From: a virus
Taxonomy: Duplodnaviria > Caudoviricetes
DNA length: 28,895 bases
Virus record (IMG/VR): IMGVR_UViG_3300022073_000033
Span: 1-28,895 of that record
Reading direction: 5' to 3' (one strand)
Below the pieces are notes generated by a model, which had not been told where the DNA came from, did no database searches, and worked only from the letters and a program-made list of their open reading frames with translations. A program made the position numbers and the translations under genes. Positions 14,014-28,895 of the stretch are shown piece by piece; position 1 is the stretch's first letter, and the number at the start of each line of letters is the position of its first letter.

Positions 14014-17000
14014 ATGGCATTCGATCCAACCAGCGCATTTCTCGACGAAGACGATACCCAGCCCGCCACCACTGGCGCCTTTGATCCGTCGACGGCCGGA
14101 TTCGATGCTTCCACCGCGTCCGAGGACTTCGAGGCCGATCAGGGCGTGCTCGGCACGCTCAAGCAGGGCACCAAGAGCGCCGCGCGCGCGATCGGCGCCA
14201 CGGCGAACACCTACACCGGAAACGCTGACGGCGTGGTGGGCAAGGCCAAGGCGCAGCAGGAGGCGCCGAAGGATTACCGCCTGGACAACCTCTACCGCGA
14301 CGTAGAGGAAAACACGAAGGCCTCCGGCGAGGATCCAGGCCTGCTCGATGCCATCGGCAATGTCGGTAAGGCTGTTTGGGACAACCCGGCCGGCGCTGGT
14401 TTGGCCGTGCTCGAGCAGCTGCCGAACTCGGTCCCGACCCTGGCGGGCGGTTACGCCGGCATGAAGGGCGGCGCGGCGCTGGGTGCTGTAGCAGGCGGCC
14501 CGGTCGGCGCTGGTATTGGTGGCGTGGTCGGCGGTCTGGCCGGCATGTTCCTGGGCAATGCGGCGATCGAAACTGGCCACAAGGCCATGGGGGCGGCCGA
14601 TGATGGCGAGTTCACCCCCGAGGTAATGGACCAGGTGAAGCGCGAGGGCGCTATCAAGGGTGGCGTTATCACCGGCGTGGATGCCGTGACGCTGGGGATT
14701 GGTGGCGCCGTGTCGGGCGCCATGCAGCGCACCACCCGATCGGCGCTGGAGGCAGCCACGCGCAAGGCACTGGTAGACCAGGGTGTCGATGTGGCGGATG
14801 AAGCGGCCGTGCTGGCGGCCCGTAGTAATCCGCAGGTCAGCGCTGCCGTGCGTGCCGCGCAGGAAAGCGCGGTCAAGGCCACTGACACGCTCAAGCGCCG
14901 CGCCGCCGAGGCAGGCACCCTGCTGGCCATGGAGTCGGCGGGCGAGGGTGTGGGCGAGTACCTGGGCGAGCTGGCGGCTACCGGCGAAGGCAACGTGACC
15001 GATGCCGTGCTGGAGTCGCTGCTGTCGGTCGGCCAGTCCGGCGCCGAAACCGCCTGGAACATGACCCGCAAGCGCGAGCAGCGCGGGCTATGGGAAGAAG
15101 CGGCGGCGATCGCCGACCCGGGCCTGGAGCAGCCCGCCGCCGCGCCGGTACCTGGTGCTGATCCCGCCCTGGACGGTTCCGCGCCGATCGATGCAGCCGC
15201 CCCCGAAGCCGCCCCGGCCGTCGACACGTCGATGGTCCAGCCGACCCCGACCGCCGAGAATCCCGCACCGGTGCCGGTACCGCGTCCCGATCCGAACAAC
15301 GGGCCGCTGTCAGCCGCTGCCAGTCTGTTGCCGCCCGCTGGTGCGCCTGCGCTGTCGGCTGGCCCGCTGTCCGAGGTGGCGCCCGCCACCGAGCAGGCAG
15401 CAGAACCGGTCGCCGAGCAGCAAGCCCCGGCACGGACTGAGGGGCCGCTTGCCGAGGCGCCGCCGGCAGATCCGCAGGCGTCGACCGAGCCGCCGGCTAC
15501 TCCGTCGCAACGCGCCATTCTGGCCCGCCGCGGCGTAGGACCGGAGCAGATCGAGGGGCTGACCCGCAAGCAGGCCGGCGAGCTGATCCAGCAGCAGAAC
15601 AAGACGCAGACCGCAGGGGCGCCCAAGCCGCAGCAGATGGGCCTGCAAGAGCCTGAAGCGGTCGAGGCCGAGCTGCGCGACCAGTTGAGTTACCTGGAGC
15701 GCCAGGCGAAGTCGGCCGGTGGATGGACGCCTGCGCTGAGCCGTGAACGTGCGCGCCTGCGCACCGCCCTGGAGCCGTTCGACCAGAACCCATCGGCTGC
15801 GCCGGCCGCCGTTGACGCGCCCGCGGATGCCTTCAAGGTCGGCGAGCAGTGGCAGAAGGGTCGCACCAGCTACACCATTGAGAGCGTATCGCCAGACGGT
15901 CGACTCGCCGATGCTGTTTTCCCTGGCGGGAAGCGCCACAAGGTAAGTCTCGACGCCGAACTGGCAAACGGTTGGCAGCGAAGCGGCCAGCAGGCAGGCG
16001 CAGCGGTAGAGCAGGCAACAGTAAGCCCTGAAACCGTTACGGCACCGGCCATCGAAGGCCGCAACATCGGTGAGCAGTGGAATGAAATGCCTCCTGTTCG
16101 CCGCCGCGAACTTATGGCCCGACCGGGCAGCCCGTTCACCGATGCAAAAGGCAGGCTGAAGGCAGAAGCTGCCCTGCTGGGAAGCTACCCATGGGACAAG
16201 CAGGAGGCGTCTGACCAGAGTGCGATTGAGGCGCTTCTATCCGGCGCAGCAGCGCAGCAGGCCGCCCCGCAGATCGAAGGCCGAGACCTTGGCGATGGCT
16301 GGGCAGCGTTCACCAGCGAGTCGGGAACCATAGGCGTTCCGCGTGCCGACATGCCTCAGATTAAGGCCGAACACCGTGGCGCGATGGTCAATTTCCTGAA
16401 TGCCCGCGGCATCGAGCACCAGGAGGAAACCGTAGCGGCTGCCAGCCTCAAGCCCACGCAAGGCGAGTTCAGCCGCAAGAAGGTGGAGCAGGCCAAGGCC
16501 TACACCGGCGGCAACCGCAGCATATTGGTTTCATCCGATAATCATGTGCTTGACGGTCATCACCAGTGGCTCGCTGCCCGCGAGAGCGGCGACGGCGTGA
16601 AGATCATCCGCCTGGGGGCGCCGATCGACCAGCTGCTGTCTGCTGCGCATGAGTTCCCCAGCTCTACCACTGACGCTGCCGCGCCGGCCGCGAATGAGCG
16701 CCGCTATCAGCTGGTGGCGATCAACGAAAAGACCGGCCGCCGGGAAGTTCTTTCCGCCGAGCCGATGACCCACGCCGAGGCTGTCACGGTCAAGAGTAAG
16801 CATTCCGATTACCCTGGCCGCCGCATTCAGCTGGAAGAAGTGTCTGCATCCGCCGCCGATCAAATGCCCGTCAAAGACGCAGCCCCCGCCGCGCGTGACG
16901 CTCAGCCTGCCGAAGCGGCGCCCGTCAAATGGTTCGCGTCCGAGAGCAAGGCACAGGCGCACATCGCCAAGAAGAAGCTCGGCGGCACGCACCAGGTCGT

Positions 17001-20000
17001 GAAGAACGGCAACAAGTACGAGATTCGCCCGCTGGCAGAGCAGCAAGGGGACTTAATAGTCCAGCAGCCTCCGGCAGTTGAGCCTACCTCCGCAGCTTCG
17101 CCCGCGGTTGAACAGGGCGAGGTGGCCGCCAAGGCGCCTATCGAGATTCCGGAAAAGGCGTTCGCTGACCTGCTGGCCGAAATGGAGCAGGGCGAGGATT
17201 CGATCCCGGTATTCGTCGAGCCGACCAAGACCGTGCGCAGCGAAGACCGCGCCAAGGGCGCTGGCGAAATGACCGTCGAGCAGGCGCAGGCGCTGGTGGC
17301 CGAGTGGGAAGCGCACGCCAAGGCGCAGGGCAAGAGCCGCGTAAACGCCGGCAAGGTGGTGCTGTCGCTGTTCGATACATCGGGCGAGTGGAGCCAGCCC
17401 TGGCTCGACGCCGGCTACGAGGTCCACCGCTTCGATATCCAGGACGGTATGGATATCAACGACTTTTCCGTCGAGTACCTGACCGAGCAGCTGGGCATCG
17501 AGCGCGCCGATATCATCCTGGCCGCGCCGCCCTGCACCGACTTTTCCAGCTCCGGTGCCCATGCCTGGAAGAAGAAGGACGCCGACGGCCGCACCGCTGC
17601 CAGTGTCGAGCTGGTGCGCCAGACCCTGCGCACCGTGGAGCTGTTCCGCCCGTCGTCGTGGGCGCTGGAAAACCCGGTCGGGCGGATCCAGAAGCTGACT
17701 GGCCTTCCCAAGCCGGCGATGACCTTCCAGCCCAACAACTTCGGCGATCCCTACACCAAGCGCACGCTGCTGTGGGGTGACTTCAATACCGAGCTGCCGC
17801 TGGCCAACGTCGCCCCGACCGAGGGGAGCAAGATCACCAACGGGCTTGCCGGCAAGGACAAGTACGGCCGCAGCCTGACCCCGAAAGGGTTTGCCTACGC
17901 CTACTTCATGGCGAACAACCTGGCCGATATGTCGGCTGCCGATCGCCTGGCTGCCGAGTTCAAGGGTTTCCCGCGCGCCGAGTTCCAGGCAGCAACAGAC
18001 GCCGGCATGGCCGAGGCCGATATCCGGACGGCGATCGAGGACAGCTACAACGACCAGGATATCGAGGCGGCGCGCGAGGATCTGCGCAACGCCATGCCGA
18101 CCCCGCCGGAGCCGACCAAGGCGCCAGAACCGCAGGAAGCGGCGCCGGAATCAACCAGCATTGCGGTACGCAGCATTCGCGCGGGCAATAAGCTGGCCCG
18201 TGCGCTGGAAGCTATCGGCTTTACCAAGATCGAAGGCACCAACGGCATGAAGCATGTAGTGGAGGGCGCCGGGCGCGCCGCCACCACCAGCGTGCGAGTC
18301 ATCCGCACGGATGACCAGATCCAGTTCCAGGTGGCATCGACAACAACCAGCATGCAAGACGGCCGCATGAAGGCAGCCGCACCGGGCATGACGGAAACCT
18401 TCGACAGCATGGACGAGGCGGTCGCCCTGGCCGCGCAGTGGCAGGAAGTAAACCGCACGTGGGTGCGTGAGGGTATGTCTAGTACGGCCGAGCTGCCGAG
18501 CGACGAGGCGCTGGCGCTCAAGTCCCGGCATACCAAGCTGGACAAGGCCATGGACCTGCTGAGCGACAAGCAGATCGAGGATCTGTACCGCCGCAGCGGC
18601 CTAGCTGGAGCACACACGCCGGTAGAGCAAAAACGCGCGATCCTGAAAATGGAGCACCCGGACGATATCGAGCCGCTGATGAATGCCAAGCCGGCGCCAG
18701 CAACCGTACCGATCGAGGACGCCCGCAAAGCCGACAAGCTGCGCCAGGTTCGCAAGATGGGGCGCGAGGCATACGACGCAGGCGAAGAACGGACGCCTCC
18801 GGCCTGGATGGGCGAGGGCGACCTTGCTGATGCGTGGCTGGAAGGCTTCGGTGACGGCATCGCGGCGAATGTTCAGCGCAACATGGACGCCCGCAAGGAG
18901 CAGGAGAAGGCCGCCGCGCCGGATCTGGCCCAGCAGCTCGCCGGCATGAGCAATGCCGCGCTGTCGTCGCTGATCGACGATATCGCCGCCGAGGACGCAC
19001 AGGTCGCCGACACGGCCAAGCCTGCGCCCAAGCGCAAGCGCAAGACCCAGCCGAAGGCCAAGGACGCCGCGCCGAAGCCGCGCAGCACCACATCGCCGGC
19101 CGAAAGCGCCGACGAAACCGATGCGGCCGACGTTGAGCGCACCGCCGGCGAGATTGCCAAGAGCTTCGGCTACAATGTCAGCAGCGCCGGCATGGAGGCG
19201 ATCAAGGGGCTCACCGAGCTGTTTGGTGGATCCGGCAGGCTGTCGAGCGGGCTGACGTTCGACGAGGAAACCTATGCCAAGGCCAAGCCGCACTTCCAGG
19301 CCATGTTGCGTGACGCACAGGCAGCCGGGCACGACCTGGCGCAGTTCGTCCGGACGGTATTGCAGAGCTTCGGAACCGGCGTAAAGCCGTACATCATCCG
19401 CTACGCCAACGACCTTCGGGACGAGGTGGCGCAGCCGCAGGAGAACACCAATGGCACAGACAGCACTCAGTCCGCAGTGGATCGAGCAGATCAGGCAGGA
19501 GTACCAGCGCCTGCTGGCGGACGAGGACGTGATACACAACCGGGATCTGCACAAGCGGATACTGGCCGCGTGGCGGCTGGAGAGCCCGAAGCTGTGGGCG
19601 AACCTGTCCAGGGTGGGGCTGACGACGCCGCTGGCCTACGTGCTCCAGGAACGGATGTGGCAGGAGGTGAACGAGCAGCTGCGCCAGGGCGTGCCGCTGA
19701 CGGACGCCCGCGAGCAGGCCGAAAGGAACCATCTGATGCTGGAGCCGGAAGCGCAGAACGAGCCGATCGCAGCCCAAGCGTAACCGCCACCAAGGCACCC
19801 GCCGAAGTCAGTCCAGGCAATCCCGGCCCTGGCAATTTCCACGTAGCTGACCCGCTCAAGATCGTAGGCGGCGGCCAGGTCGCCCGCTTCGACAAGAACC
19901 GCGCCGCAATCGAGCTGTACAACGAGCTGCGCGCCGAGGGCCGTCCGGCCACCCGCGAAGAACAGGAAGTGCTCGCCGGCTACACCGGCTGGGGTTCGTT

Positions 20001-23000
20001 CGGGCAGGAGCTGTTCCAGGGCAGCTGGGCACGCCCTGCGCCGAAAAGCGGCTGGGAAGCGCGCGATGCGTGGCTGCGCGACAACCTGGGCCAGAAGGAA
20101 TGGGAAGGCCTGCAACGCTCCATCACCAACGCCCACTACACCGACCCGCCGACGGTGCTGGCGATGTGGGAAATGGTCAAGCGCATGGGCTTCCAGGGTG
20201 GTCGCGTGCTCGAGCCATCCATGGGCATCGGCAACTTCTTCGGCATGATGCCGGCCGACCTGAAGGCGCGCAGCCAGCTGGCCGGCATCGAGCTGGATCC
20301 GGTCACTGGCGGCATGGCCAAGCTGCTCTATCCGGACGCCAATATCCAGGTGAAGGGCTACCAGGAGTCCAAGACGCCCGACGGCTTCTATGACCTGGTG
20401 ATCGGCAACTGGCCTTTCGAGGATACGGTGATCGCCGATCGCCGGTACCAGCGCCTGAACCCGTATCTGCACGATTACTTCTTCCTGAAAGCGGTGGACC
20501 AGGCCCGCGCCGGTGGCCTGGTGGTCGGCATCACGTCCAAAGGCAGCATGGACAAGAAGTCGATCGGGATCCGCGCCGAGCTGGCCAAGAAGGCCGAGCT
20601 GGTGGCCGCGTTCCGCCTGCCGTCTGGCGCCTTCAAGGAATACGCCGGCACCAGCGTGGTGACGGATATCGTCATCCTGCGCAAGCGTCCCGAACCGGTG
20701 CGCAACATCGCCGACGCGGGCTGGATCGAGTCGGTGGACTACCAGACCCCAAGCGGTGAAACCGTCTCGATCAACGAGTATTACGTCAAGAACCCGCAGA
20801 ACGTCATTGGCACCATCGACTTTGGCCACGGGACCACCTTCAAGCGGCCGGGCATGATCGTTCACCGCCCCGACAACATGACCGAGCAGCTGGAGCGCAT
20901 CACCCAGCTGGCGCCCGAGGGCGCATTCCAGCCCGAGCGCCAGGCGGACACGATCAGCTACATCGCCAACCACACCGCCGACCGCGAGAACTCGCTGATT
21001 CGCACCAAGGACGGCTTGTTTGTGGTGCGGGGCGAGTACCTGGCGCCAGCCAATGAGGTTGCCAAGTACGCCGTCAAGAGCGAGGCGACCACCCGCGCGC
21101 GTGAAGACCAGTTCGACCGCCTCATAGAGCTGCGCAAGCAGTATGCGGCTGTGATCGAGGCGCAGCGCAGCGGTGATGTCAAGGCCGAGCGCAAGGCGCT
21201 AAAGGCCAGCTATGAGGCGTTTGTCGCCAAGCACGGGCCGATCAATGAGAGCTACGGGCTCAGCTACCTGCAAAAGATCGACGACCCGTTCTATGCGTCC
21301 CTGGCGGCGCTGGAGGTCATGGAGAAGGATGGCGCGGCCGTCACCTATCGGCCATCGGCGATCATGTCCAAGGCCACCACGCGCGGTGCGCTGGCTATTG
21401 AGAACCCAAGTATTGCTGACGCTTTCGTGCTGGCGCGTAACCAGTCCATCAATCCGACCTTGGAGCAGGTCGCGGAGATGGCGAAAAGGCCGGTCGCCGA
21501 GGTCAAGTCCGAGCTGTTGAGCAAAGGCGCCGTATTCGAGCTACCAAGCGGCGATGTGGTGCCGTCGGATATCTATCTGTCGGGCAACGTGCGCGAGAAG
21601 CTGCGCGATGCCAAGGCGGCCGTCGCCGAAGGGCTGGCCCAGCTACAGCGCAACATAGACGCCCTGGGCGAGGTGGTGCCGGCCGACGTGCCGTACTACA
21701 AGATCGAGGCGCAGATGGGGGCTTCGTGGGTATCGACCGGCATCTATGCCGAGTACGTCGCTCACATGCTCAACCTGCCCAAGGCTGACGGAATCGACGT
21801 GAGTTATTCCGGTGGTCGCTGGAAGATCAAGCTACCCAACGGCGCCAACAACCGGGCCGAGGCCAGCGCCGGCTTTGGCACCAAGGAGGTTCCATTCTCC
21901 CGTCTGGTGAATGCGGCGATCAGCAATCTGACAATCAACATCAAGCGCAAGGACAGCAACGGAAACGAGTACATCGACAGTGAGGCCACCAAGGAAGTAA
22001 ACGGCAAGATCGGCGAGATTCGCCAGCGCTTCGGCGAGTGGCTATGGTCGGACCCTGAGCGCCGCGAGAGCGTCGAACGCGAGTACAACGACGCCCGCAA
22101 CGCCTACGCAACCCCAAACTTTGACGGCTCCGTGCTGGCGTTCGAAGGCATGGCGCTGAGCCTGGGCAATGGCCCGTTCGACCTGCGTAAGCACCAGCGT
22201 GACGCTATCTGGCGCGCTCTGGTCATGCGCCGCTCGCTCAACGCGCATGAAGTCGGCACCGGCAAGACCTTCACCATGGGCGGCATCGCTGTGGAGTCGC
22301 GCCGCTATGGCATGGCCAAGAAGCCGCTGATCCTGGCGCACAACGCCAACAGCAAGTCGGTCGCCGCTGAAATTCAGATGATGTACCCGGCCGCCAAGGT
22401 GCTCTATATCGACAACCTGTCGCCCGATACCGTGGATATCAAGCTGCGTCAGATAGCGAACGACGATTGGGACGCGGTGGTGCTGCCGCACTCGCTCATT
22501 AACCGCTTGGCGTTCAAGGAAGAAACGCTAATGGAAATGGCCTACGAGGAAATTCGCGAGCTGGAAAGCGCCGCGGCCGAGGCTGCCGAAGAAGATGGCG
22601 TAACCCTGACCAGCGAAATGCTCAAGGATGACAAGGAGCTGGAGAAGCTGCGCTCCGTCACCGCAAAAGACTTAGTGAAAACCCGCAACAAGATCATCAA
22701 CGCCATCAAGAAACAGGCGCAACGGGCATCAAAGGAGGGCGCCACCGCGTTCGAAGACCTGGGCATTGATATGGTGCTGGTCGATGAAGGCCATGAGTTC
22801 AAGAAGCCGCCATTTAGCACGACGATGAAGATGAAGGGCTTGCAGACCAAATCGTCCGACCGCTCGATCGCACTGGCCTTCCTGACCAAGTACATCCGCA
22901 CCCACAACAACGGCGGCAACGTCCACGTCTTCACCGGAACGCCGATCACCAACACGCTGACCGAAGTGTTCCACCAGATGCGCTACATCATGCAGGAGGA

Positions 23001-26000
23001 AATGGAGGCCGCCGGCGTGGATCAGTGGGACGGCTGGTTTGGATCCTTTGCCCGCGAAGTCACCGACGTGGAGCTGAACGCGGCGGCGGAATACGAAGCC
23101 GTAACGCGCCTGTCTGCGTTCATCAACGTGCCCGAGTTGCGCCGGATGATTGGGCAATACATGGACGTGGTATTTGCCGACGACATGCCGGAAATGCAGC
23201 CGCGCCACACCGCCACCGGCAAGAAGATGGACGACGAGGAGCTGACCGAGGCCGAGCGCGCCGAGCTGCTGAACGGACGCACCGAGCAGGCCAAGGACCG
23301 CCCCTACAAGAAGGTCATCATCGACACGGCCGACCTCACCGAGGAACAGAAGGTCGAGTTCCAGAAGATCCAGGGCTATGCCCGTGCCTGGCGCAGCATG
23401 AGCGGCAAGGAACGCAAAGAGACGATGAGCGCTGGCGCCCCTGAATCACCCATCATCTACGAGAACCTGGCCGGCAAAGCCAGCTTTGACGTTCGCCTGA
23501 ACCGCGGCGCCGAGCTGGCCGGTCAGGAAGGGCAGGTACCGGACGAGCCGGACAGCAAGGCCAGTCGCGTCGTGCGCAACGTGCTGGAGGTCTACAATTC
23601 GCACCCGCTCGCCACACAGGTGATATTCGCGCAGCAGGGGCTGTCGACGACGGCAACCCGCAGCGTCGGCCCGGTCGGCGACAAGCGCAAGGTCACCTAC
23701 AAGACCTTCTCGACCATGCGCGATGTGGTCGAGCGCCTGGTTCAGCAGGGTATTCCGCGCGAGCAGATCGCGATTGTTGACGGCGACACCAGCAAGGACA
23801 AGCGCAAGGCGATCGCCGACGCCATGAACCGCGCCGAGATTCGCGTGGTGATCGGCAGCACGCAATCGCTGGGCGTGGGCGTGAACATGCAGCGCAACCT
23901 GCGCGCCATGCACCACATGGACGCGCCATGGATGCCGGGCGATCTGGAACAGCGTAATGGTCGCGGCCACCGCCAAGGCAACCAGTGGAACACGGTGCTC
24001 GAATACCGCTACCTGACCGACCGCCTGGATGGCCGGCGCTGGCAGGTGCTGGCGATCAAGCAGCGCTTCATCACTGCGTTCCTCAAATCCAACGACGCCG
24101 ACCGCGTGATTGAAGGCGACGCGGCCAGCGAGGAAGAAAGCGACATCCTCGAAACCTTCGCCGAGGCGGCAGGCGACCCGCGTATCCTGATTCGCGAGAA
24201 GCTGAAGAAGAAGATCGAGCAGCTGCAATCGCGCGAGCGCCTTCACGGCCAGGCCGTGTCGGATGCCCGCCGATCGCTGCGCATTACCCGCGAGCGCCGC
24301 GACGAGCGGCGCGACAAGCTCAAGGCGCTGGACGATGCCGGCGTGGTCGAGGCGGTCCAGGCGCTGACGGCGGCCACTGCTGGCGCCGGTTTCACCATGA
24401 CCGTGGACGGCACCGAGTACGCCACCCGCAAGGAAGCCGAGGAAGCGATCGCCGCATTCGCCGAGGATAACGTGCGCACCGGCGACAATCGCGCGCACCC
24501 GGTCGGCAGCTTCGGCGGTCACGCGCTGAGCCTGACCTGGCCGTATTGGGCCGATCAGCCGGTCATCACCGCCGATATCAACGGCACGCCAATTTCCAGC
24601 CGCAGCCTGCGCCTACAGAGCCTGGAAACCGCCCTGCGCGGCTACCCAGACGAGATCCAGAAGCAACGCAATGAAGTGGTCGAGGCGGCGCGCACCATTA
24701 CCCGCCTGGAGCAGGTGGCCGGCGAGCCGTTCCACATGGCTGCCGACCTGGAGCGCGCGCAAAAGGACTACGAGCTGCTGGAGAAAGACCTGGAGCAGAA
24801 CCCGGTACCGCCGCCGGCGTGGCTGCGCAGCGGCGTCCCGGTCGATACGGAAGTGACCTGGAAGTCCAAGACATTCCTAGTCACCGGCCACCGCTGGAAC
24901 AAAGACGGTTGGTTCGTGCTGGCCGCCGATGCCAAAGGCAACGTAGTGATCCCCTACACCGAGGCGCGGGACGCGCAAGGCATGGCCGTCTACGAGGAGC
25001 GCCCGTTCGAGGCGCCGGAAGTGGTCACCAAGGAAAACCCGCAAGGGCTGACCGAGGCCGACGCTGTGCCGACCGACTCAGGCGTCCGGTTCTCCGTCGG
25101 TTCGCGCCCCTCCGGCGCTACCCGAATCCGTTTTCTCGACCGGGGGGCAGTACAGAAGGCTGCCGTCAAGGCGGTAGGTGAGGCGACCGCTGGGCGGTTC
25201 GTCTTCACTAGCTTCGCGGACCTTCCGGCGGGGATTCGTGATGCGGTAGAGCGCCAGGGCATACCGCCGCGCGAGATTAAAGGGGTTCATTGGAAGGGTA
25301 AAACCTATCTGGTGGATGACCGTTTCACGACGGCTGATGAAGTGCGTCGCGCCGTGTTCCACGAACACTATGCCCATTACGGCCTGCGGTCCATGTACGG
25401 CAAAGAGCTGGAAGCGCGCCTGTCCATGCTGCTGTCGCGCGTCGGTGGCAAGGATGGCGTGCTCAAGCTGGCGCGCGAGCAGCGTATCGACCTGAGCGAG
25501 TATGAGGCGGCCGGCAAGCGGGACAAGAAGCTGACCGAGAAACAACGCCACCTGATCCTGATGGAGGAACTGCTGGCGCACGCGGCCGAAACAACCGGCA
25601 CCCTTCGCCGTATCGTGGAGGAATGGGTAGGGCTGGTGCGTGACTGGCTGCGCAAGAAGGGCTATGCGGAGCTGGCCGAATACGGTATTACCGACTTGGC
25701 GTATGAGCTGAAAGCCGCCCGTAAAGAGGCTATTCGAGCGGACGAGGCGACGGACGGCCAGCCGCTGTTCAAGCTGGTAGGTGGCGTCGATCAGACCGCT
25801 ACCGATGCGTTCCGCAGCTGGTTTGGTGCGTCCAAGGTGGTCGACAAGCAGGGCGAGCCGCAGGTGCTGTATCACGGTACCGCCTCGGAGTTCACTGTGT
25901 TCGAGAATCGCGCGGGCAACAGCACCGGGCACGCCACGTCCGACCTGGGCTACTTCATGACCAGCGATCAGCGCAGCGCCGAGGGCTACGCACGCAACGC

Positions 26001-28895
26001 CAGTGACGGTATGCCGGGCCTGGCGAAGGTCATGGAGCTGTACGCTTCGATCAAGAACCCCTACGTGGCCACGCTCGAGGAAATGCAGGCGATCGAGAAT
26101 CCGGTCCAGGCTCGCCGCTGGCGCGCCAAGCTGGAGCAGGCCGGGCACGACGGCATGCACATCCCGTCGGCAAAGGCCTGGGTGGCGTTCAACAACTACC
26201 AGATCAAGTCGGCGACCGATAACGTCGGCACCTTCGACGAGTTCGACGCCGATATTCGCTTCCGCCTGGGCGACTTCATCGGCCGGCGCGAGTCGTTCGA
26301 CGTGGCCGCGAGCAACGCCAAGCGCACGCTCAAGGGCCGCGTGTCCGACCTGAAACCGGCGATGCTGGGGGCGCTGCCGCTCAACTACCTGCGCGACTTC
26401 GCCCCGCAGTCGATGACCGCGCTTACGGCCTACATGGACGAGAAGCGCGCCATGGATGCCGATCGCAACGAAATGCACACCCGCTATGACGCGATCGCGC
26501 AGCGCTGGCTCAAGCTGCGCTGGACCGACCGCAAGGCCGAGCAGCGCCTGGCCGACCTGATGCACGCCGCCACCCTGGAGGGCGTGGACCCCAGCAAGCC
26601 GATCAAGGAGGCGTATACCCCGGAGCAGAAGGCGACCTATAACCGCCTGCGCATCCAGTTCCAGTCGCTGCCGGCCGAGCACCGCGCCATGTTCGGCGAG
26701 GCGCGTGACGCCTACAAACAGCAGATCAGCACCCTGGAAAGCGTGATCGAGGAGAACATCCGCAAGTCGGCCGAGTACGCCAAGAAGCGCGCTCGCCGCG
26801 ACCGTGACGCGGACATTCAGCGTGCCAAGGACGAACTGGTTGGCGACGAGCTGGACGAAGCGCTGGAGGCCGCCGAGAAGCGCTACAACGGCCGCGTGGC
26901 ATCGGCCGAGAAGGGCGGTAGCGCGAAGATCCTGCTGTTGCGCCAGAAGTTCGAGAGCATGCGTGTGGACGAGCCGTATTTCCCGCTCAAGCGCTACGGC
27001 GATTACTTCGTAGCCATGCGTGACGGCGACGAGCTGGTGTCGTTCTCCATGTTCGAGAGCGCGGCCGACATGGAAGCGGCGGCCGCCGAGCTGCGCAAGA
27101 CCTACCCGAACCTGTCGGTCAAGGTCGGTCGCCAGTCGAACAAGCAGGAGCTGGAGGGCGCGGTAGATCCGGCGTTCATCGCCGATTTGCAGGACGTGGT
27201 ATCGCGCATGCCCAACTCCAAGGAGCTGAGCGACCAGATTTACCAGATGTACCTGGAGACGATGCCGGACTTTTCCATGCGCAAGGGCTTCATCCACCGC
27301 AAGAAGACCGCCGGCTTCGATCGGGACGCCATGCGCGCCTTCGCCAGCTCCATGTTCCATAGCTCGTACCAGATCGCCCGCCTGAAGCACTCGCTCGAAA
27401 TGAACGAGCTGGTCGAGCAGGTCGAGGACCAGGCCAAGGCCGCCAAGGATCCGGTGGACGCCATGACCATCGCCAACGAGCTGCGCAAGCGGCACGAATG
27501 GGTCATGTCGCCCAAGAGCGGGAAGATCGCCCAGCACATCACGTCGGCCGCCTTCGTCTATCAGCTGGGCATCACCCCGGCCGCCGCGCTGGTGAACACG
27601 ACGCAGACCTGGATGATGGGTATCCCGATCCTGGGTGCGCGCTTCGGCAGCGAAACCAAGGCCGCCGCGGCGCTGACCAAGGCCTCGGCTGACTTCGTGC
27701 AAGGGCGCGGGCACATCGAGAAGCGCCTGGAAGGCCAGGAGGCCGCCGCTTTCGCCGAGTTCATGCGCATGGGGCTGATCGACAAGACGCAGGCGCACGA
27801 CCTGGCCGGCGTCGGCGAGACGGGCGTGGAGTACAACCCGGTGCGCCACAAGGTCATGGGCTACATCAGCTGGGCCTTCCACAATGCCGAGCGTTACAAC
27901 CGTGAGGTGACGGTGATGGCGGCCTACCGCCTGGGCCGTGCGAACGGCCTGGACCATGAGGCGGCGATCAAGGAAGCGGCCGAGCTGACCTGGACCACCC
28001 ACTTCGACTACAGCTCCGGCAACCGTGCGCGCTTCATGCAGAACGACACGGCCAAGGTGCTGCTGGTGTTCCGTCAGCACTCGATCAACATGCTGTCGCG
28101 CCTGGTCATCGATCTGCGCGGCGCCATGAAGGGCGAGACGCCCGAGGTCAAGCGCATGGCCAAGCGCCGGCTGGCGGGCATGTTCTCCATGTTCGGGCTG
28201 TTCGCCGGCGTGATGGGTATCCCTGGTGTCATGGCCATCCTGGCGCTGCTGGATCTGTTCGACGATGACGATGATCCGTGGAGCACCGAGGACAAGATGA
28301 GGCGCAATCTGGTGGACGCGCTGGGACCGGACGTGGCCGCCGTGGTGCTGGGCGGCCTGCCTGGCACCGTGTCGGACCTTTCGCTGACCGAGCGTGTCGG
28401 CATGGGCTACCTGTGGTTCCGCCCGGCCGGGCGCGAGCTGGAAGGCAAGGACGCCTATCTGTACTGGATGGAGCAGGTGCTGGGCGCGGCGCCGGCGATG
28501 GTCAGCAATACCTTCACCGGCGTGAAGATGATCGGCGAGGGGCACGTCTGGCGCGGGATAGAGGCGATGATGCCGAAGGCGATCAAGGATGCCATGCGCG
28601 CTGGGCGCTACACCCAAGAGGGCGTGCTGACCATGGATGGTACGCCGCTGGTCGACGAGGTGGGAACCTGGAACATCATCGCGCAGGCGATGGGTTTTAC
28701 ACCGGCGCACATCGCCGAGCGCTACGACACGAACCGCGCACTGAAGAACGCCGAGCAACACATCCTGACGGAGCGGCGCAGCATCCTGAACCGCTACGCC
28801 ATGGCCGTGAAACAGGGCGATAGCGAAATGCGCGGCAAGCTGCTCGAGCGAGTCCAGGCCTTCAACAGGCGGTACCCGCAGTACCCGATCACCGG
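14014..28895 (+). CDS. giant polyvalent protein (DarB-like MTase-helicase, PLxRFG-domain), >4,960 aa, 3'-truncated
   Basis: ATG at 14014 directly follows the TAA at 14011-13. Frame 1 reads MAFDPTSAFLDEDD... and I found no stop in the segments I translated. The track lists no terminated frame-1 ORF after 14013, consistent with the frame running off the window end. Multiple recognisable enzyme motifs lie in this frame. Confidence 0.92.
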   Translation, partial: MAFDPTSAFLDEDDTQPATTGAFDPSTAGFDASTASEDFEADQGVLGTLKQGTKSAARAIGATANTYTGNADGVVGKAKAQQEAPKDYRLDNLYRDVEENTKASGEDPGLLDAIGNVGKAVWDNPAGAGLAVLEQLPNSVPTLAGGYAGMKGGAALGAVAGGPVGAGIGGVVGGLAGMFLGNAAIETGHKAMGAADDGEFTPEVMDQVKREGAIKGGVITGVDAVTLGIGGAVSGAMQRTTRSALEAATRKALVDQGVDVADEAAVLAARSNPQVSAAVRAAQESAVKATDTLKRRAAEAGTLLAMESAGEGVGEYLGELAATGEGNVTDAVLESLLSVGQSGAETAWNMTRKREQRGLWEEAAAIADPGLEQPAAAPVPGADPALDGSAPIDAAAPEAAPAVDTSMVQPTPTAENPAPVPVPRPDPNNGPLSAAASLLPPAGAPALSAGPLSEVAPATEQAAEPVAEQQAPARTEGPLAEAPPADPQASTEPPATPSQRAILARRGVGPEQIEGLTRKQAGELIQQQNKTQTAGAPKPQQMGLQEPEAVEAELRDQLSYLERQAKSAGGWTPALSRERARLRTALEPFDQNPSAAPAAVDAPADAFKVGEQWQKGRTSYTIESVSPDGRLADAVFPGGKRHKVSLDAELANGWQRSGQQAGAAVEQATVSPETVTAPAIEGRNIGEQWNEMPPVRRRELMARPGSPFTDAKGRLKAEAALLGSYPWDKQEASDQSAIEALLSGAAAQQAAPQIEGRDLGDGWAAFTSESGTIGVPRADMPQIKAEHRGAMVNFLNARGIEHQEETVAAASLKPTQGEFSRKKVEQAKAYTGGNRSILVSSDNHVLDGHHQWLAARESGDGVKIIRLGAPIDQLLSAAHEFPSSTTDAAAPAANERRYQLVAINEKTGRREVLSAEPMTHAEAVTVKSKHSDYPGRRIQLEEVSASAADQMPVKDAAPAARDAQPAEAAPVKWFASESKAQAHIAKKKLGGTHQVVKNGNKYEIRPLAEQQGDLIVQQPPAVEPTSAASPAVEQGEVAAKAPIEIPEKAFADLLAEMEQGEDSIPVFVEPTKTVRSEDRAKGAGEMTVEQAQALVAEWEAHAKAQGKSRVNAGKVVLSLFDTSGEWSQPWLDAGYEVHRFDIQDGMDINDFSVEYLTEQLGIERADIILAAPPCTDFSSSGAHAWKKKDADGRTAASVELVRQTLRTVELFRPSSWALENPVGRIQKLTGLPKPAMTFQPNNFGDPYTKRTLLWGDFNTELPLANVAPTEGSKITNGLAGKDKYGRSLTPKGFAYAYFMANNLADMSAADRLAAEFKGFPRAEFQAATDAGMAEADIRTAIEDSYNDQDIEAAREDLRNAMPTPPEPTKAPEPQEAAPESTSIAVRSIRAGNKLARALEAIGFTKIEGTNGMKHVVEGAGRAATTSVRVIRTDDQIQFQVASTTTSMQDGRMKAAAPGMTETFDSMDEAVALAAQWQEVNRTWVREGMSSTAELPSDEALALKSRHTKLDKAMDLLSDKQIEDLYRRSGLAGAHTPVEQKRAILKMEHPDDIEPLMNAKPAPATVPIEDARKADKLRQVRKMGREAYDAGEERTPPAWMGEGDLADAWLEGFGDGIAANVQRNMDARKEQEKAAAPDLAQQLAGMSNAALSSLIDDIAAEDAQVADTAKPAPKRKRKTQPKAKDAAPKPRSTTSPAESADETDAADVERTAGEIAKSFGYNVSSAGMEAIKGLTELFGGSGRLSSGLTFDEETYAKAKPHFQAMLRDAQAAGHDLAQFVRTVLQSFGTGVKPYIIRYANDLRDEVAQPQENTNGTDSTQSAVDRADQAGVPAPAGGRGRDTQPGSAQADTGRVAAGEPEAVGEPVQGGADDAAGLRAPGTDVAGGERAAAPGRAADGRPRAGRKEPSDAGAGSAERADRSPSVTATKAPAEVSPGNPGPGNFHVADPLKIVGGGQVARFDKNRAAIELYNELRAEGRPATREEQEVLAGYTGWGSFGQELFQGSWARPAPKSGWEARDAWLRDNLGQKEWEGLQRSITNAHYTDPPTVLAMWEMVKRMGFQGGRVLEPSMGIGNFFGMMPADLKARSQLAGIELDPVTGGMAKLLYPDANIQVKGYQESKTPDGFYDLVIGNWPFEDTVIADRRYQRLNPYLHDYFFLKAVDQARAGGLVVGITSKGSMDKKSIGIRAELAKKAELVAAFRLPSGAFKEYAGTSVVTDIVILRKRPEPVRNIADAGWIESVDYQTPSGETVSINEYYVKNPQNVIGTIDFGHGTTFKRPGMIVHRPDNMTEQLERITQLAPEGAFQPERQADTISYIANHTADRENSLIRTKDGLFVVRGEYLAPANEVAKYAVKSEATTRAREDQFDRLIELRKQYAAVIEAQRSGDVKAERKALKASYEAFVAKHGPINESYGLSYLQKIDDPFYASLAALEVMEKDGAAVTYRPSAIMSKATTRGALAIENPSIADAFVLARNQSINPTLEQVAEMAKRPVAEVKSELLSKGAVFELPSGDVVPSDIYLSGNVREKLRDAKAAVAEGLAQLQRNIDALGEVVPADVPYYKIEAQMGASWVSTGIYAEYVAHMLNLPKADGIDVSYSGGRWKIKLPNGANNRAEASAGFGTKEVPFSRLVNAAISNLTINIKRKDSNGNEYIDSEATKEVNGKIGEIRQRFGEWLWSDPERRESVEREYNDARNAYATPNFDGSVLAFEGMALSLGNGPFDLRKHQRDAIWRALVMRRSLNAHEVGTGKTFTMGGIAVESRRYGMAKKPLILAHNANSKSVAAEIQMMYPAAKVLYIDNLSPDTVDIKLRQIANDDWDAVVLPHSLINRLAFKEETLMEMAYEEIRELESAAAEAAEEDGVTLTSEMLKDDKELEKLRSVTAKDLVKTRNKIINAIKKQAQRASKEGATAFEDLGIDMVLVDEGHEFKKPPFSTTMKMKGLQTKSSDRSIALAFLTKYIRTHNNGGNVHVFTGTPITNTLTEVFHQMRYIMQEEMEAAGVDQWDGWFGSFAREVTDVELNAAAEYEAVTRLSAFINVPELRRMIGQYMDVVFADDMPEMQPRHTATGKKMDDEELTEAERAELLNGRTEQAKDRPYKKVIIDTADLTEEQKVEFQKIQGYARAWRSMSGKERKETMSAGAPESPIIYENLAGKASFDVRLNRGAELAGQEGQVPDEPDSKASRVVRNVLEVYNSHPLATQVIFAQQGLSTTATRSVGPVGDKRKVTYKTFSTMRDVVERLVQQGIPREQIAIVDGDTSKDKRKAIADAMNRAEIRVVIGSTQSLGVGVNMQRNLRAMHHMDAPWMPGDLEQRNGRGHRQGNQWNTVLEYRYLTDRLDGRRWQVLAIKQRFITAFLKSNDADRVIEGDAASEEESDILETFAEAAGDPRILIREKLKKKIEQLQSRERLHGQAVSDARRSLRITRERRDERRDKLKALDDAGVVEAVQALTAATAGAGFTMTVDGTEYATRKEAEEAIAAFAEDNVRTGDNRAHPVGSFGGHALSLTWPYWADQPVITADINGTPISSRSLRLQSLETALRGYPDEIQKQRNEVVEAARTITRLEQVAGEPFHMAADLERAQKDYELLEKDLEQNPVPPPAWLRSGVPVDTEVTWKSKTFLVTGHRWNKDGWFVLAADAKGNVVIPYTEARDAQGMAVYEERPFEAPEVVTKENPQGLTEADAVPTDSGVRFSVGSRPSGATRIRFLDRGAVQKAAVKAVGEATAGRFVFTSFADLPAGIRDAVERQGIPPREIKGVHWKGKTYLVDDRFTTADEVRRAVFHEHYAHYGLRSMYGKELEARLSMLLSRVGGKDGVLKLAREQRIDLSEYEAAGKRDKKLTEKQRHLILMEELLAHAAETTGTLRRIVEEWVGLVRDWLRKKGYAELAEYGITDLAYELKAARKEAIRADEATDGQPLFKLVGGVDQTATDAFRSWFGASKVVDKQGEPQVLYHGTASEFTVFENRAGNSTGHATSDLGYFMTSDQRSAEGYARNASDGMPGLAKVMELYASIKNPYVATLEEMQAIENPVQARRWRAKLEQAGHDGMHIPSAKAWVAFNNYQIKSATDNVGTFDEFDADIRFRLGDFIGRRESFDVAASNAKRTLKGRVSDLKPAMLGALPLNYLRDFAPQSMTALTAYMDEKRAMDADRNEMHTRYDAIAQRWLKLRWTDRKAEQRLADLMHAATLEGVDPSKPIKEAYTPEQKATYNRLRIQFQSLPAEHRAMFGEARDAYKQQISTLESVIEENIRKSAEYAKKRARRDRDADIQRAKDELVGDELDEALEAAEKRYNGRVASAEKGGSAKILLLRQKFESMRVDEPYFPLKRYGDYFVAMRDGDELVSFSMFESAADMEAAAAELRKTYPNLSVKVGRQSNKQELEGAVDPAFIADLQDVVSRMPNSKELSDQIYQMYLETMPDFSMRKGFIHRKKTAGFDRDAMRAFASSMFHSSYQIARLKHSLEMNELVEQVEDQAKAAKDPVDAMTIANELRKRHEWVMSPKSGKIAQHITSAAFVYQLGITPAAALVNTTQTWMMGIPILGARFGSETKAAAALTKASADFVQGRGHIEKRLEGQEAAAFAEFMRMGLIDKTQAHDLAGVGETGVEYNPVRHKVMGYISWAFHNAERYNREVTVMAAYRLGRANGLDHEAAIKEAAELTWTTHFDYSSGNRARFMQNDTAKVLLVFRQHSINMLSRLVIDLRGAMKGETPEVKRMAKRRLAGMFSMFGLFAGVMGIPGVMAILALLDLFDDDDDPWSTEDKMRRNLVDALGPDVAAVVLGGLPGTVSDLSLTERVGMGYLWFRPAGRELEGKDAYLYWMEQVLGAAPAMVSNTFTGVKMIGEGHVWRGIEAMMPKAIKDAMRAGRYTQEGVLTMDGTPLVDEVGTWNIIAQAMGFTPAHIAERYDTNRALKNAEQHILTERRSILNRYAMAVKQGDSEMRGKLLERVQAFNRRYPQYPIT
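16273..16665 (+). other. ParB/Srx-like domain within the giant protein
   Basis: SLKPTQ (16444) ... ILVSSDNHVLDGHHQWLAA (DGHH at 16552). Confidence 0.75.
17353..17919 (+). other. compact C5-cytosine DNA methyltransferase domain within the giant protein
   Basis: Motif I-like VLSLFDTSG, catalytic PPC (17527), ENP (17668), YTKRTLLWG, and terminal RSLTPKGFAYAYF. Confidence 0.85.
19451..19783 (+). CDS. overprinted (+1 frame) 110-aa helical protein, TnpV-like pattern
   Basis: AGGAG at 19439-43, 7 nt before the ATG. The translation is protein-like and amphipathic, while the host frame over the same span is a G/A/R/P/D-rich linker. Confidence 0.7.
   Translation: MAQTALSPQWIEQIRQEYQRLLADEDVIHNRDLHKRILAAWRLESPKLWANLSRVGLTTPLAYVLQERMWQEVNEQLRQGVPLTDAREQAERNHLMLEPEAQNEPIAAQA
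19831..20700 (+). other. N6-adenine DNA methyltransferase domain (DarB-type)
   Basis: YTGWG, NAHYT, motif I VLEPSMGIGNF (20206), IELD, motif IV IGNWPF (20401), HDYFF, RLPSGAF, TDIVILRKR. Confidence 0.9.
22180..24100 (+). other. SF2 (SNF2/Strawberry-notch-like) helicase domain
   Basis: Q motif LRKHQ, Walker A AHEVGTGKT (22243), Walker B VDEGH (22780), motif III TGTP (22933), GVGVNMQ, motif VI EQRNGRGHRQGN (23947). Confidence 0.92.
25200..25690 (+). other. zincin-like metallopeptidase domain (polyvalent-protein type)
   Basis: VFHEHYAHYGL (HExxxH at 25360) with downstream EELLAH (25564), preceded by KGVHWKGKTYLV. Confidence 0.7.
25795..26268 (+). other. ADP-ribosyltransferase domain (ART-PolyVal-like)
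   Basis: FRSWFGASKVVD..GEP.VLYHGT (YHGT at 25870), A.GYA, IKNP, GHDG, QIKSATDNVGTFD...DIRF. Confidence 0.8.
26340..27200 (+). other. PLxRFG domain region
   Basis: PYFPLKRYGDYFV at 26974-27012 within a helical region. The boundaries are approximate. Confidence 0.7.

Follow-up and report, generated by a model that had tools for sequence, protein, structure and literature searches.

A probable small gene overprinted on the linker of a giant DarB-like polyvalent phage gene

Background

Can the gene for a giant virion protein carry a second gene in another reading frame, and if so, which of the two readings does selection maintain? The question is raised by a 28,895-base stretch of DNA from an uncultured tailed virus (IMG/VR record IMGVR_UViG_3300022073_000033), which is about 46% complete and is called here, at its full length, the window. 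A giant open reading frame (ORF) spans positions 14014..28893 of its plus strand, and inside it, at 19451..19783, lies a small ORF in the +1 frame. The initial annotation, made from the letters of the window alone, had taken this small ORF for a hidden gene. It pointed to a ribosome-binding site, to a helical product, to the degeneration of the giant frame into low-complexity sequence over the same interval, and to the position just before a methylase-helicase block. It further proposed that selection acts on the nested frame, that the product resembles the small TnpV proteins of mobile elements and could be a chaperone, inhibitor or partner of the methylase-helicase, and that standard annotation would miss the gene. 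We compared the locus with its homologs in phage records and in viral and genome contigs. In our judgment the way these sequences evolve leaves little doubt that 19451-19783 represents a real dual-coding gene, which would be overprinted in the +1 frame on a linker of a giant DarB-like polyvalent gene.

Results and discussion

The nested ORF and its product

The nested ORF starts with an ATG at 19451 and stops with a TAA at 19781-19783, on the plus strand like its host; (19451 - 14014) mod 3 = 1, which puts it in the +1 frame of the giant ORF. A Shine-Dalgarno (SD)-like AGGAG at 19439..19443 precedes the ATG by 7 nt (AACACCA). The predicted product, P0001, has 110 amino acids (aa). These coordinates and signals are all as first described. 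The entire ORF is contained in a longer gene, on the same strand and in a different frame, which is the layout of same-strand embedded phage genes of the Rz1-in-Rz type.

AlphaFold2 (AF2) folds the nested protein as five helices with a predicted local distance difference test (pLDDT) of 82.4 and a predicted template modeling score (pTM) of 0.70, in keeping with the helical product that had been claimed. The pLDDT drops after residue 95. The C-terminal LMLEPE tail is invariant and apparently unstructured, and one may speculate that it could serve as a docking or processing motif.

Is such an ORF more than chance? On the window sequence by itself, not clearly. The stop-free run that holds it is 132 codons long, and the case from one sequence is weak because 2 of the 149 +1-frame runs in the giant gene, the DNA of which is about 65% GC, are that long. 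Comparison with relatives, by contrast, answers the question clearly in favor of a gene.

Homologs and conservation of the arrangement

A tblastn search of 50,697 phage records with the nested protein found only the Pseudomonas phages vB_PaeM_USP_25 and USP_18, with 58.5% identity over 82 residues. The match is in the +1 frame inside an annotated 14.7-kb giant coding sequence (CDS), and in the USP_25 record the giant CDS stands alone at the locus and the nested ORF is unannotated. In a large protein collection there were 143 small homologs at E<=1e-3 (about 105 aa, unnamed, with no Pfam domain) that have in common the motif VIHN..LH..IL..W..SP.MW...LA(F/Y)V.Q(E/Q)RMW....G.P.TDAREQAE..HLMLEPE. 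A profile search of 1.84 billion representatives returned 221 clusters at E<=1e-3, of which 124 reach E<=1e-10; among the 150 of the 221 clusters listed, lengths are 44-329 aa. Over 57 aligned family members the amino acid changes are conservative.

Scans of viral and genome contigs supplied 49 further loci, and the comparisons below draw on 52 sources, namely the window and loci L001-L051. The nested arrangement is present in 42 of the 52: the small ORF lies inside a plus-strand ORF of at least 1615 aa and always in its +1 frame, and the host ORF is open through the whole locus of about 6.3 kb in all nested sources except L027. Thirty-seven of these 42 loci, from phages and prophages, are unique and are the basis of most comparisons. 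Frame, start, stop and protein sequence are kept across all 37, which is the conservation that the initial annotation had asked of homologous giant genes. Its statement that standard annotation misses the gene is supported. Besides USP_25, six of eight further phage records list the giant CDS only, and the other two (Itty13 and PBC5) are annotated differently, neither listing the ORF as a gene of its own; gene callers did, however, call the 143 small homologs, mostly on short contigs.

Which frame is under selection

The ratio of nonsynonymous to synonymous differences per site (pN/pS) was obtained from Nei-Gojobori counts for 20 close pairs of loci, at 75-97% nucleotide identity, and for all 666 pairs. 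In the close pairs the nested frame had a pN/pS of 0.39, with pN below pS in 20 of 20, whereas the giant frame in the same columns had a pN/pS of 1.62, with pN below pS in none of the 20. The third frame gave 1.11, and the downstream methylase region, read in the giant frame, 0.20. Over all 666 pairs the values were 0.69 for the nested frame (pN<pS in 628 pairs), 1.26 for the giant frame (pN<pS in 16), 0.94 for the third frame and 0.39 for the methylase region. The two-frame comparison thus finds the purifying signal, as in an embedded gene, in the nested frame, and pN above pS in the giant frame.

Diversity by codon position gives a similar picture. Downstream of the overlap the giant frame varies mostly at third positions (0.279, 0.211 and 0.525 at the first, second and third positions). 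Inside the overlap its values are 0.471, 0.428 and 0.379 in the giant-protein alignment, and those of the nested frame are 0.423, 0.355 and 0.469 in the nested-protein alignment, the column sets of the two alignments differing slightly. When the giant frame was scanned in windows of 25 codons, the ratio of third-position diversity to that at first and second positions was 0.71-1.06 only in 19465-19806; elsewhere in 19087-21231 it was 1.24-3.86. GC content by codon position is 0.674, 0.380 and 0.809 for the nested frame in the overlap, against 0.619, 0.429 and 0.768 for the flanking giant frame, and the third-position GC of the giant frame inside the overlap is only 0.38. The nested third position is the most GC-rich of the three in 34 of the 37 loci. 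Codon-position diversity and third-position GC agree with the pN/pS ratios, and the proposal of dual coding with selection on the nested frame is borne out.

The giant frame over the nested gene

What, then, does the giant frame encode here? Over the nested ORF it reads GTDSTQSAVDRADQAGVPAPAGGRGRD... and is rich in G, A, R, D and P. In the AF2 model of the giant-frame segment 19090-20055, a predicted disordered, low-complexity linker (19438..19833, plus strand) sits between two folded flanks. Its residues (117-248 of the model) nearly all have a pLDDT below 50, in segments 117-155, 158-215, 217-241 and 243-248, and form no secondary structure. Across the 37 loci the linker is 20% G, 16% A, 10% R, 9% D and 8% P, and hydrophobic residues make up 8.3% of it versus 29.3% of the nested protein. 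The degenerate, low-complexity character ascribed to the giant frame over this interval is accordingly evident, and conserved giant-frame sequence (SPGNPGPGNFHVADPLKIVGGG...) picks up again at about 19807.

The giant frame nevertheless has to remain open. A stop appears in the giant frame wherever a nested codon has T as its last base and the next codon begins with AA, AG or GA. Codons ending in T occur at none of the 1220 sites before such codons and at 208 of 2962 sites elsewhere (7%), so that no giant-frame stops are seen in the overlap where 88.8 would be expected. When the nested codons were shuffled among synonyms, the giant frame stayed open in a median of 18% of trials, and seven of eight free-standing homologs have 1-9 stops in that frame. 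These figures should be read with the caution that the nested loci were chosen by their open frame, although their giant ORFs run for thousands of bases on both sides. Judged by its sequence, the giant frame over the nested ORF evolves like a passenger, constrained solely to stay free of stops.

Start signals and translation

An invariant W was placed by script in 33 loci, and in these the start codon lies 34-41 codons 5' of it. The starts of L005, L008 and L010 were placed by eye, and the choice of start is ours. As placed, the starts of all 37 loci fall at one aligned position, 36 being ATG and one GTG (L008, with GGAGG). In 29 of the 37 unique nested loci the start is preceded, at a spacing of 4-13, by an SD core (4 nt or longer); the background is 11.4% for all positions and 11.2% for the remaining +1-frame ATGs of these ORFs (p = 7e-21). 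The nested ORF has, in other words, the start codon and ribosome-binding site of its own that are expected of an embedded gene.

No sigma-70-like promoter or terminator motif was found in positions 18900-20000 of the window, and RNA folding around the nested start is not unusual (z = 0.40). Ribosomes would initiate at the internal SD and ATG on the late mRNA of the giant gene; that the nested product is made by its own initiation is very likely on the strength of these conserved signals.

The giant gene and its methylase-helicase module

Head closure and virion protein genes lie upstream of the giant ORF, which comprises 4960 codons and is still open at the window end. Pfam models for Helicase_C, ART-PolyVal and LPD39 match the giant protein; the C5 DNA_methylase model matches weakly, below its cut-off, and ResIII scores 21.5 bits against a cut-off of 22.5. 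The methylase block is common to 86 phage records, many of them annotated 'DarB-like antirestriction'. With an N6-methylase, an SF2 helicase, a multi-domain architecture and a place in the virion module, the giant ORF (14014..28893, plus strand) qualifies as a DarB-like virion protein of the polyvalent type described by Iyer et al. 2017 (PMC5512222), and its methylase, SF2 helicase, ART-PolyVal and LPD39 domains put it in the same class as the proteins described there.

Just 5' of the linker, at 19090..19437 on the plus strand, the giant protein has a helical domain (helices at residues 10-114 of the AF2 model, in a block with pLDDT 49-72). Its motif ...GVKPYIIRY... resembles the ...KPYLKSWY... 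domain that precedes the nested gene in many loci, though the BLAST match is weak. Past the linker, 19807..21015 (plus strand) holds the start of the conserved module, an N-terminal domain and the N6-adenine methylase with the helicase next; its alignment (A3) has a mean column identity of 64% and many invariant residues. This stretch probably carries the LPD36 label, a dyad of LPD36 with methylase and helicase having been described by Iyer et al. (PMC5512222).

Other long ORFs are present in the +1 frame of the giant gene, at window positions 15155-15538, 17891-18250, 18683-18949 and 21212-21520. The last is the sole one of these that was translated, and its R/S/P/W-rich product has the look of off-frame junk.

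A fixed place before the module, and a sister family

Is the position of the nested gene as constant as its frame? The domain upstream of it differs among loci, with at least three types represented. Downstream, the motif with which the module starts (...GPGNFH..PL.IVGGG.VARF.KN..AIEL...) follows the nested stop within 60 residues in 36 of the 37 loci, and in the remaining one, L032, a domain is inserted between the two. The placement directly before the methylase-helicase block, noted at first for the window, is borne out.

The comparison was extended to eight cultured phages (PEp14, LASTA, Atu_ph08, Itty13, PBC5, Bcep22, Gervaise and POI1126) with methylases 37-40% identical. An open +1-frame stretch ends just upstream of the module in all eight. 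In seven of them its length is 107-137 codons; in PBC5 it forms the last part of a frame that stays open for 665 codons. Some 500 nt separate its end from the module match in Atu_ph08 and PBC5. In small searches the family profile matched six of the eight ORFs, four of them at E 1.5e-4 to 1.5e-3, that of PBC5 at E 0.021 and that of POI1126 at E 0.043. It did not match those of Bcep22 and Gervaise, which share a short motif by eye only.

Homologs of the PEp14-type ORF form a second, sister family of 21 proteins, and hhalign joins the window family to it with a probability of 89.4 (E 2.1e-6, 68 columns). The sister family is nested at the same spot in PEp14 (locus L056, 2181-2495), LASTA (L057, 2193-2516), Itty13 (L059, 2145-2465), Atu_ph08 (L058, 1668-1973) and POI1126 (L063, 2139-2453), in each case as an unannotated +1 ORF. 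Among these five phages pN is below pS in the nested frame in 10 of 10 pairs and above it in the giant frame in 9 of 10, and each ATG has a recognizable SD-like purine motif within the preceding 20 nt. The ORFs with the short motif only, likewise unannotated and in the +1 frame, are at L061, 2142-2462 (Bcep22) and L062, 2148-2468 (Gervaise). From ATG to stop these seven cultured-phage ORFs have 102-108 codons, and the phages belong to several genera.

Searches for known families and folds

P0001 has no match in PHROGs, NCBIfam or PADLOC. DUF2924 (PF11149) was considered and rejected: P0001 scores 14.9 bits (E 0.033) against a gathering score of 31.2, and any match at all is seen in 3 of 57 members. 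Across those 57 Pfam gives no family consistently. A sequence profile search of the PDB with the family gave no matches at E<=10, and a Foldseek search of the PDB with the five-helix model none at E<=0.001. The best BFVD match to the model is Q8W6J4_2 (E 0.077, probability 1.00, TMq 0.59, 15% identity), an unnamed entry for the second segment of a long protein. It may represent a copy of the fold that a giant phage protein carries in frame. The best VIA wide match, 2apl_A, has a Z of 6.0, under the level that is meaningful for helical bundles with that tool. The ESM Atlas returned only unnamed clusters, apart from a rank-14 cluster (score 0.80) with TnpV on 11% of its members.

The resemblance to TnpV that had been proposed is weak. 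The TnpV model PF14198 finds nothing in the window (six frames, E<=0.01), in P0001 or in the 57 members (E<=1), and neither the window protein nor its relatives reach the gathering score of 27 bits. Sister-type ORFs come closer, all below the cut-off, in four of eight proteins: PEp14 (E 4.3e-4, 20.7 bits, the best), LASTA (0.003), Itty13 (0.015) and Bcep22 (0.045). When whole records were searched in six frames, PEp14 and Itty13 each gave a single TnpV match, the nested ORF; LASTA gave two, of which the nested ORF was the better, and Bcep22 gave none. When a shallow TnpV alignment, made of 18 sequences that are 75-98% identical, was used for comparison, hhalign gave a probability of 1.1 for the sister family and 0.18 for the window family. 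The TnpV link is filed here as a lead and not as membership because the matches are sub-threshold and these probabilities are so low.

A true TnpV frame (82 bits) occurs at 9118-9493 of L064, a Streptococcus element (MN270279), where it begins 14 nt after a 1982-aa methylase-SNF2 gene; this is the single example examined. A stop interrupts that frame, which the annotation splits into two small ORFs, and tet(O) comes after it.

Comparison with known systems

Embedded out-of-frame genes are well known in phages as a kind. The classic case is Rz1 inside Rz (lambda type, and also Bcep22-like phages according to PMC9144972): there too a whole gene of a tailed phage lies on the same strand in a shifted frame, with start signals of its own, and the spanin products of the two genes work together, which is a model for the idea of a partner here. 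There is no sequence relation between Rz1 or Rz and the nested gene. Unlike Rz, the host here is a virion protein of about 5000 codons, and it is the nested reading that is structured and selected and the host frame that is a disordered passenger linker. The novelty lies in the gene family, in its constant position ahead of a DarB-type module in phages of many genera, and in the exchange of roles between the two frames.

In phage P1 a small gene, ulx (146 aa), lies directly downstream of darB, whereas the small gene described here is nested upstream of the module. Ulx is a head protein that 'aids DarB localization' according to a table in PMC9024508. It was tried as a homolog and rejected (hhalign probability 0.06 against the family), and the likeness would be one of role only. 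The P1 record (L052, 26577-26975) annotates iddB inside ddrB on the opposite strand, a nested ORF in a gene of the Dar system.

TnpV (PF14198, of Tn4451-like elements) is like the nested protein small and helical (about 110-125 aa) and found on mobile elements. The sub-threshold match of the sister family to it covers W..H...P..Y..L..SG.L..L; the family model does not match the nested protein or its 57 relatives. The function of TnpV has itself only been postulated, from likeness to lambda Xis (PMC3158075).

As to polyvalent proteins, the terms 'overlapping', 'frameshift' and 'alternative frame' were all absent when PMC5512222 was searched for them, and 'nested' refers there to a hairpin fold alone; the account it gives includes no linker with a hidden gene. 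The literature searched, which included PMC5512222, PMC7573221 and PMC9144972 and mostly did not cover subscription journals, contained no account of genes nested within DarB-like or polyvalent ones.

Copies that are not nested, and other points against

Several observations weigh against reading the ORF as a separately translated gene whose product serves the module next to it. A clear SD core is missing in 8 of the 37 loci, structure and sequence searches yield no functional lead, and Ulx of P1 is unrelated in sequence to the nested protein. A service to the DarB-type module is proposed because of a tight and ancient positional link, and position is the sole basis for it. Moreover, homologs in 10 of the 52 sources are not nested, and the 3 kb fetched for them contain no gene for a methylase-helicase. 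Four Psychrobacter species have the domain at the C-terminal end of a protein of 222-391 aa, fused in frame to another polyvalent-protein domain; in Skermanella it stands in frame before the same kind of domain; and orf33 of PBC5 ends in frame with the sister domain, which comes after a ...KPYLKSWY... domain. The protein is thus found without the module and within longer chains, and therefore the readings as an independent effector and, much less likely, as a frameshift product persist.

The Psychrobacter fusion gene lies on the plus strand at 9119-10291 of L054 (G001:C2:329600-349500) and also occurs in L039, L040, L042 and L044. In the two proteins that were scanned, the preceding residues (about 100) match positions 1265-1362 and 1265-1374 of a DarB-like PHROG. 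On one side of the L054 gene, in a defense island, is a type IIG restriction enzyme and on the other a type I Zorya system that is complete (ZorA-D), and the other three loci have the same fusion with a ZorA-sized ORF of 690-692 aa downstream. The 'tape measure' label that PHROGs gives to this neighbor is wrong; the protein is ZorA. In PBC5 (AF448724; L060) orf33 with the sister domain spans 3-1997 and a separately annotated methylase gene, orf23, runs from 2657 onward. Either the two are genuinely split, or the record, an old one, contains a frame error.

Two other copies (L047, 2938-3345, and L051, 2950-3753) have a decayed look: after about 80 residues the frame enters sequence resembling the giant-frame linker and the start of the module, as expected from a one-base frame change in a prophage remnant. 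On a contig of a Pseudomonas metagenome-assembled genome (L037, 1-1494), a free small gene follows 48 nt after a large ORF that is cut by the contig end, 348 aa being seen. By eye the large ORF looks like the C-terminal portion of the R subunit of a type I restriction enzyme; it has no Pfam or NCBIfam match, and in PHROGs it matches only phrog_3830, of unknown function.

Weighing the alternatives

Might the product be a real, separate protein that belongs to the phage's conflict armory, acts on its own, and sits in the linker by chance with no tie to the methylase-helicase? The copies without a methylase-helicase ORF in the 3 kb fetched would fit this, as would the Psychrobacter domain at a C-terminus beside a ZorA-sized ORF (in L054, in a type IIG and Zorya setting) and the Skermanella domain in frame before another polyvalent-protein domain, and polyvalent proteins are indeed strings of independent effector domains (PMC5512222). 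Yet the small ORF stands before the methylase module in 42 of 52 sources and in all eight cultured phages, whatever the upstream domain, the exceptions to standing directly before it being Atu_ph08 and PBC5 (about 500 nt) and L032 (the insert). Unrelated cargo would not be expected to keep its position at 37-40% methylase identity, and we regard an independent effector as unlikely, if still a serious candidate. Membership of the TnpV family with the role of TnpV, a postulated excision helper, is a good deal less credible and must be called improbable. The sub-threshold PF14198 matches in half of the sister-type proteins, the singling out of the nested ORF in whole PEp14, Itty13 and LASTA records, and the Streptococcus TnpV frame 14 nt after a methylase-SNF2 gene speak for it, with the rank-14 ESM Atlas cluster as a lead only. 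But no match reaches the 27-bit cut-off, the window, P0001 and the 57 members have none, the hhalign probabilities are close to nil, and TnpV beside a methylase-helicase gene is a single example. A looser membership, in a TnpV superfamily, is likewise unlikely.

A frameshift product is a different matter: ribosomes in the giant frame would shift to +1 and make a shortened giant protein ending in the small domain. PBC5 orf33, which ends with a sister-family domain after the same upstream domain, and the in-frame fusions of Psychrobacter and Skermanella are what such a protein would look like, and in the window 22 open +1-frame codons precede the ATG. In 12 unique loci, however, there is a nested-frame stop 1-6 codons 5' of the start, which makes it unlikely that ribosomes come in by a frameshift out of the giant frame; conservation of the start codon and SD is far over background, the homologs are small (the 44-329 aa given above for the clusters listed), and no conserved slippery site was seen, though none was specifically looked for. 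We consider this reading very unlikely. That there is no gene at all, the open frame being a by-product of high GC and the conservation due to DNA or RNA constraint, is scarcely conceivable. It could appeal to the two +1-frame runs in 149 that reach 132 codons and to the junk-like ORF at 21212-21520, but it is already contradicted by the comparative data: the codon-level signatures are specific to the nested frame, the changes in the 57 members are conservative, start, SD and stop are conserved, the fold is confident, free-standing and in-frame homologs exist, and RNA structure in the start region is ordinary. A real, separately translated nested gene is thus the reading that these sequence comparisons make likely.

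A model for the nested gene

How might the overlap have come about, and what would the product do? The overlap would stem from the fusion of neighboring genes, with the fused frame reading across a pre-existing small gene in another frame. Such a fusion into the polyvalent gene is the most likely origin of the overlap as we infer it, the linker being a younger reading than the small gene. The 110-aa product would act as an accessory factor of the DarB-type methylase-helicase, in folding, capsid loading or control, and this role would parallel that of the small head protein Ulx in aiding DarB localization in P1. That the nested product is a partner of the methylase-helicase module is a tentative proposal, possible but short of probable.

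A broader version of this proposal is that a small helical partner is obligatory for the DarB-type modules found in phages and conjugative elements, and is usually hidden in the second frame of the preceding linker; that the window family, the sister family and free-standing TnpV form one superfamily; and that the linker is the overprinted newcomer after the fusion. Taken as a whole we hold this to be rather doubtful. If it were true, TnpV would gain its first functional context, and the usual view of the nested gene as the newcomer would be reversed.

Implications

Giant DarB-like genes take up about one fifth of the genome in many phages, several therapy candidates among them, and are annotated as one gene. 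With a conserved second gene inside them, the gene count changes. Knock-outs would also have to be read differently, for a deletion of the linker would take out the small gene too. The nested product is a candidate factor in the making, loading or control of injected anti-restriction enzymes, and the unusual overlap suggests that genes can be buried, and not lost, when neighboring genes fuse to encode polyvalent proteins.

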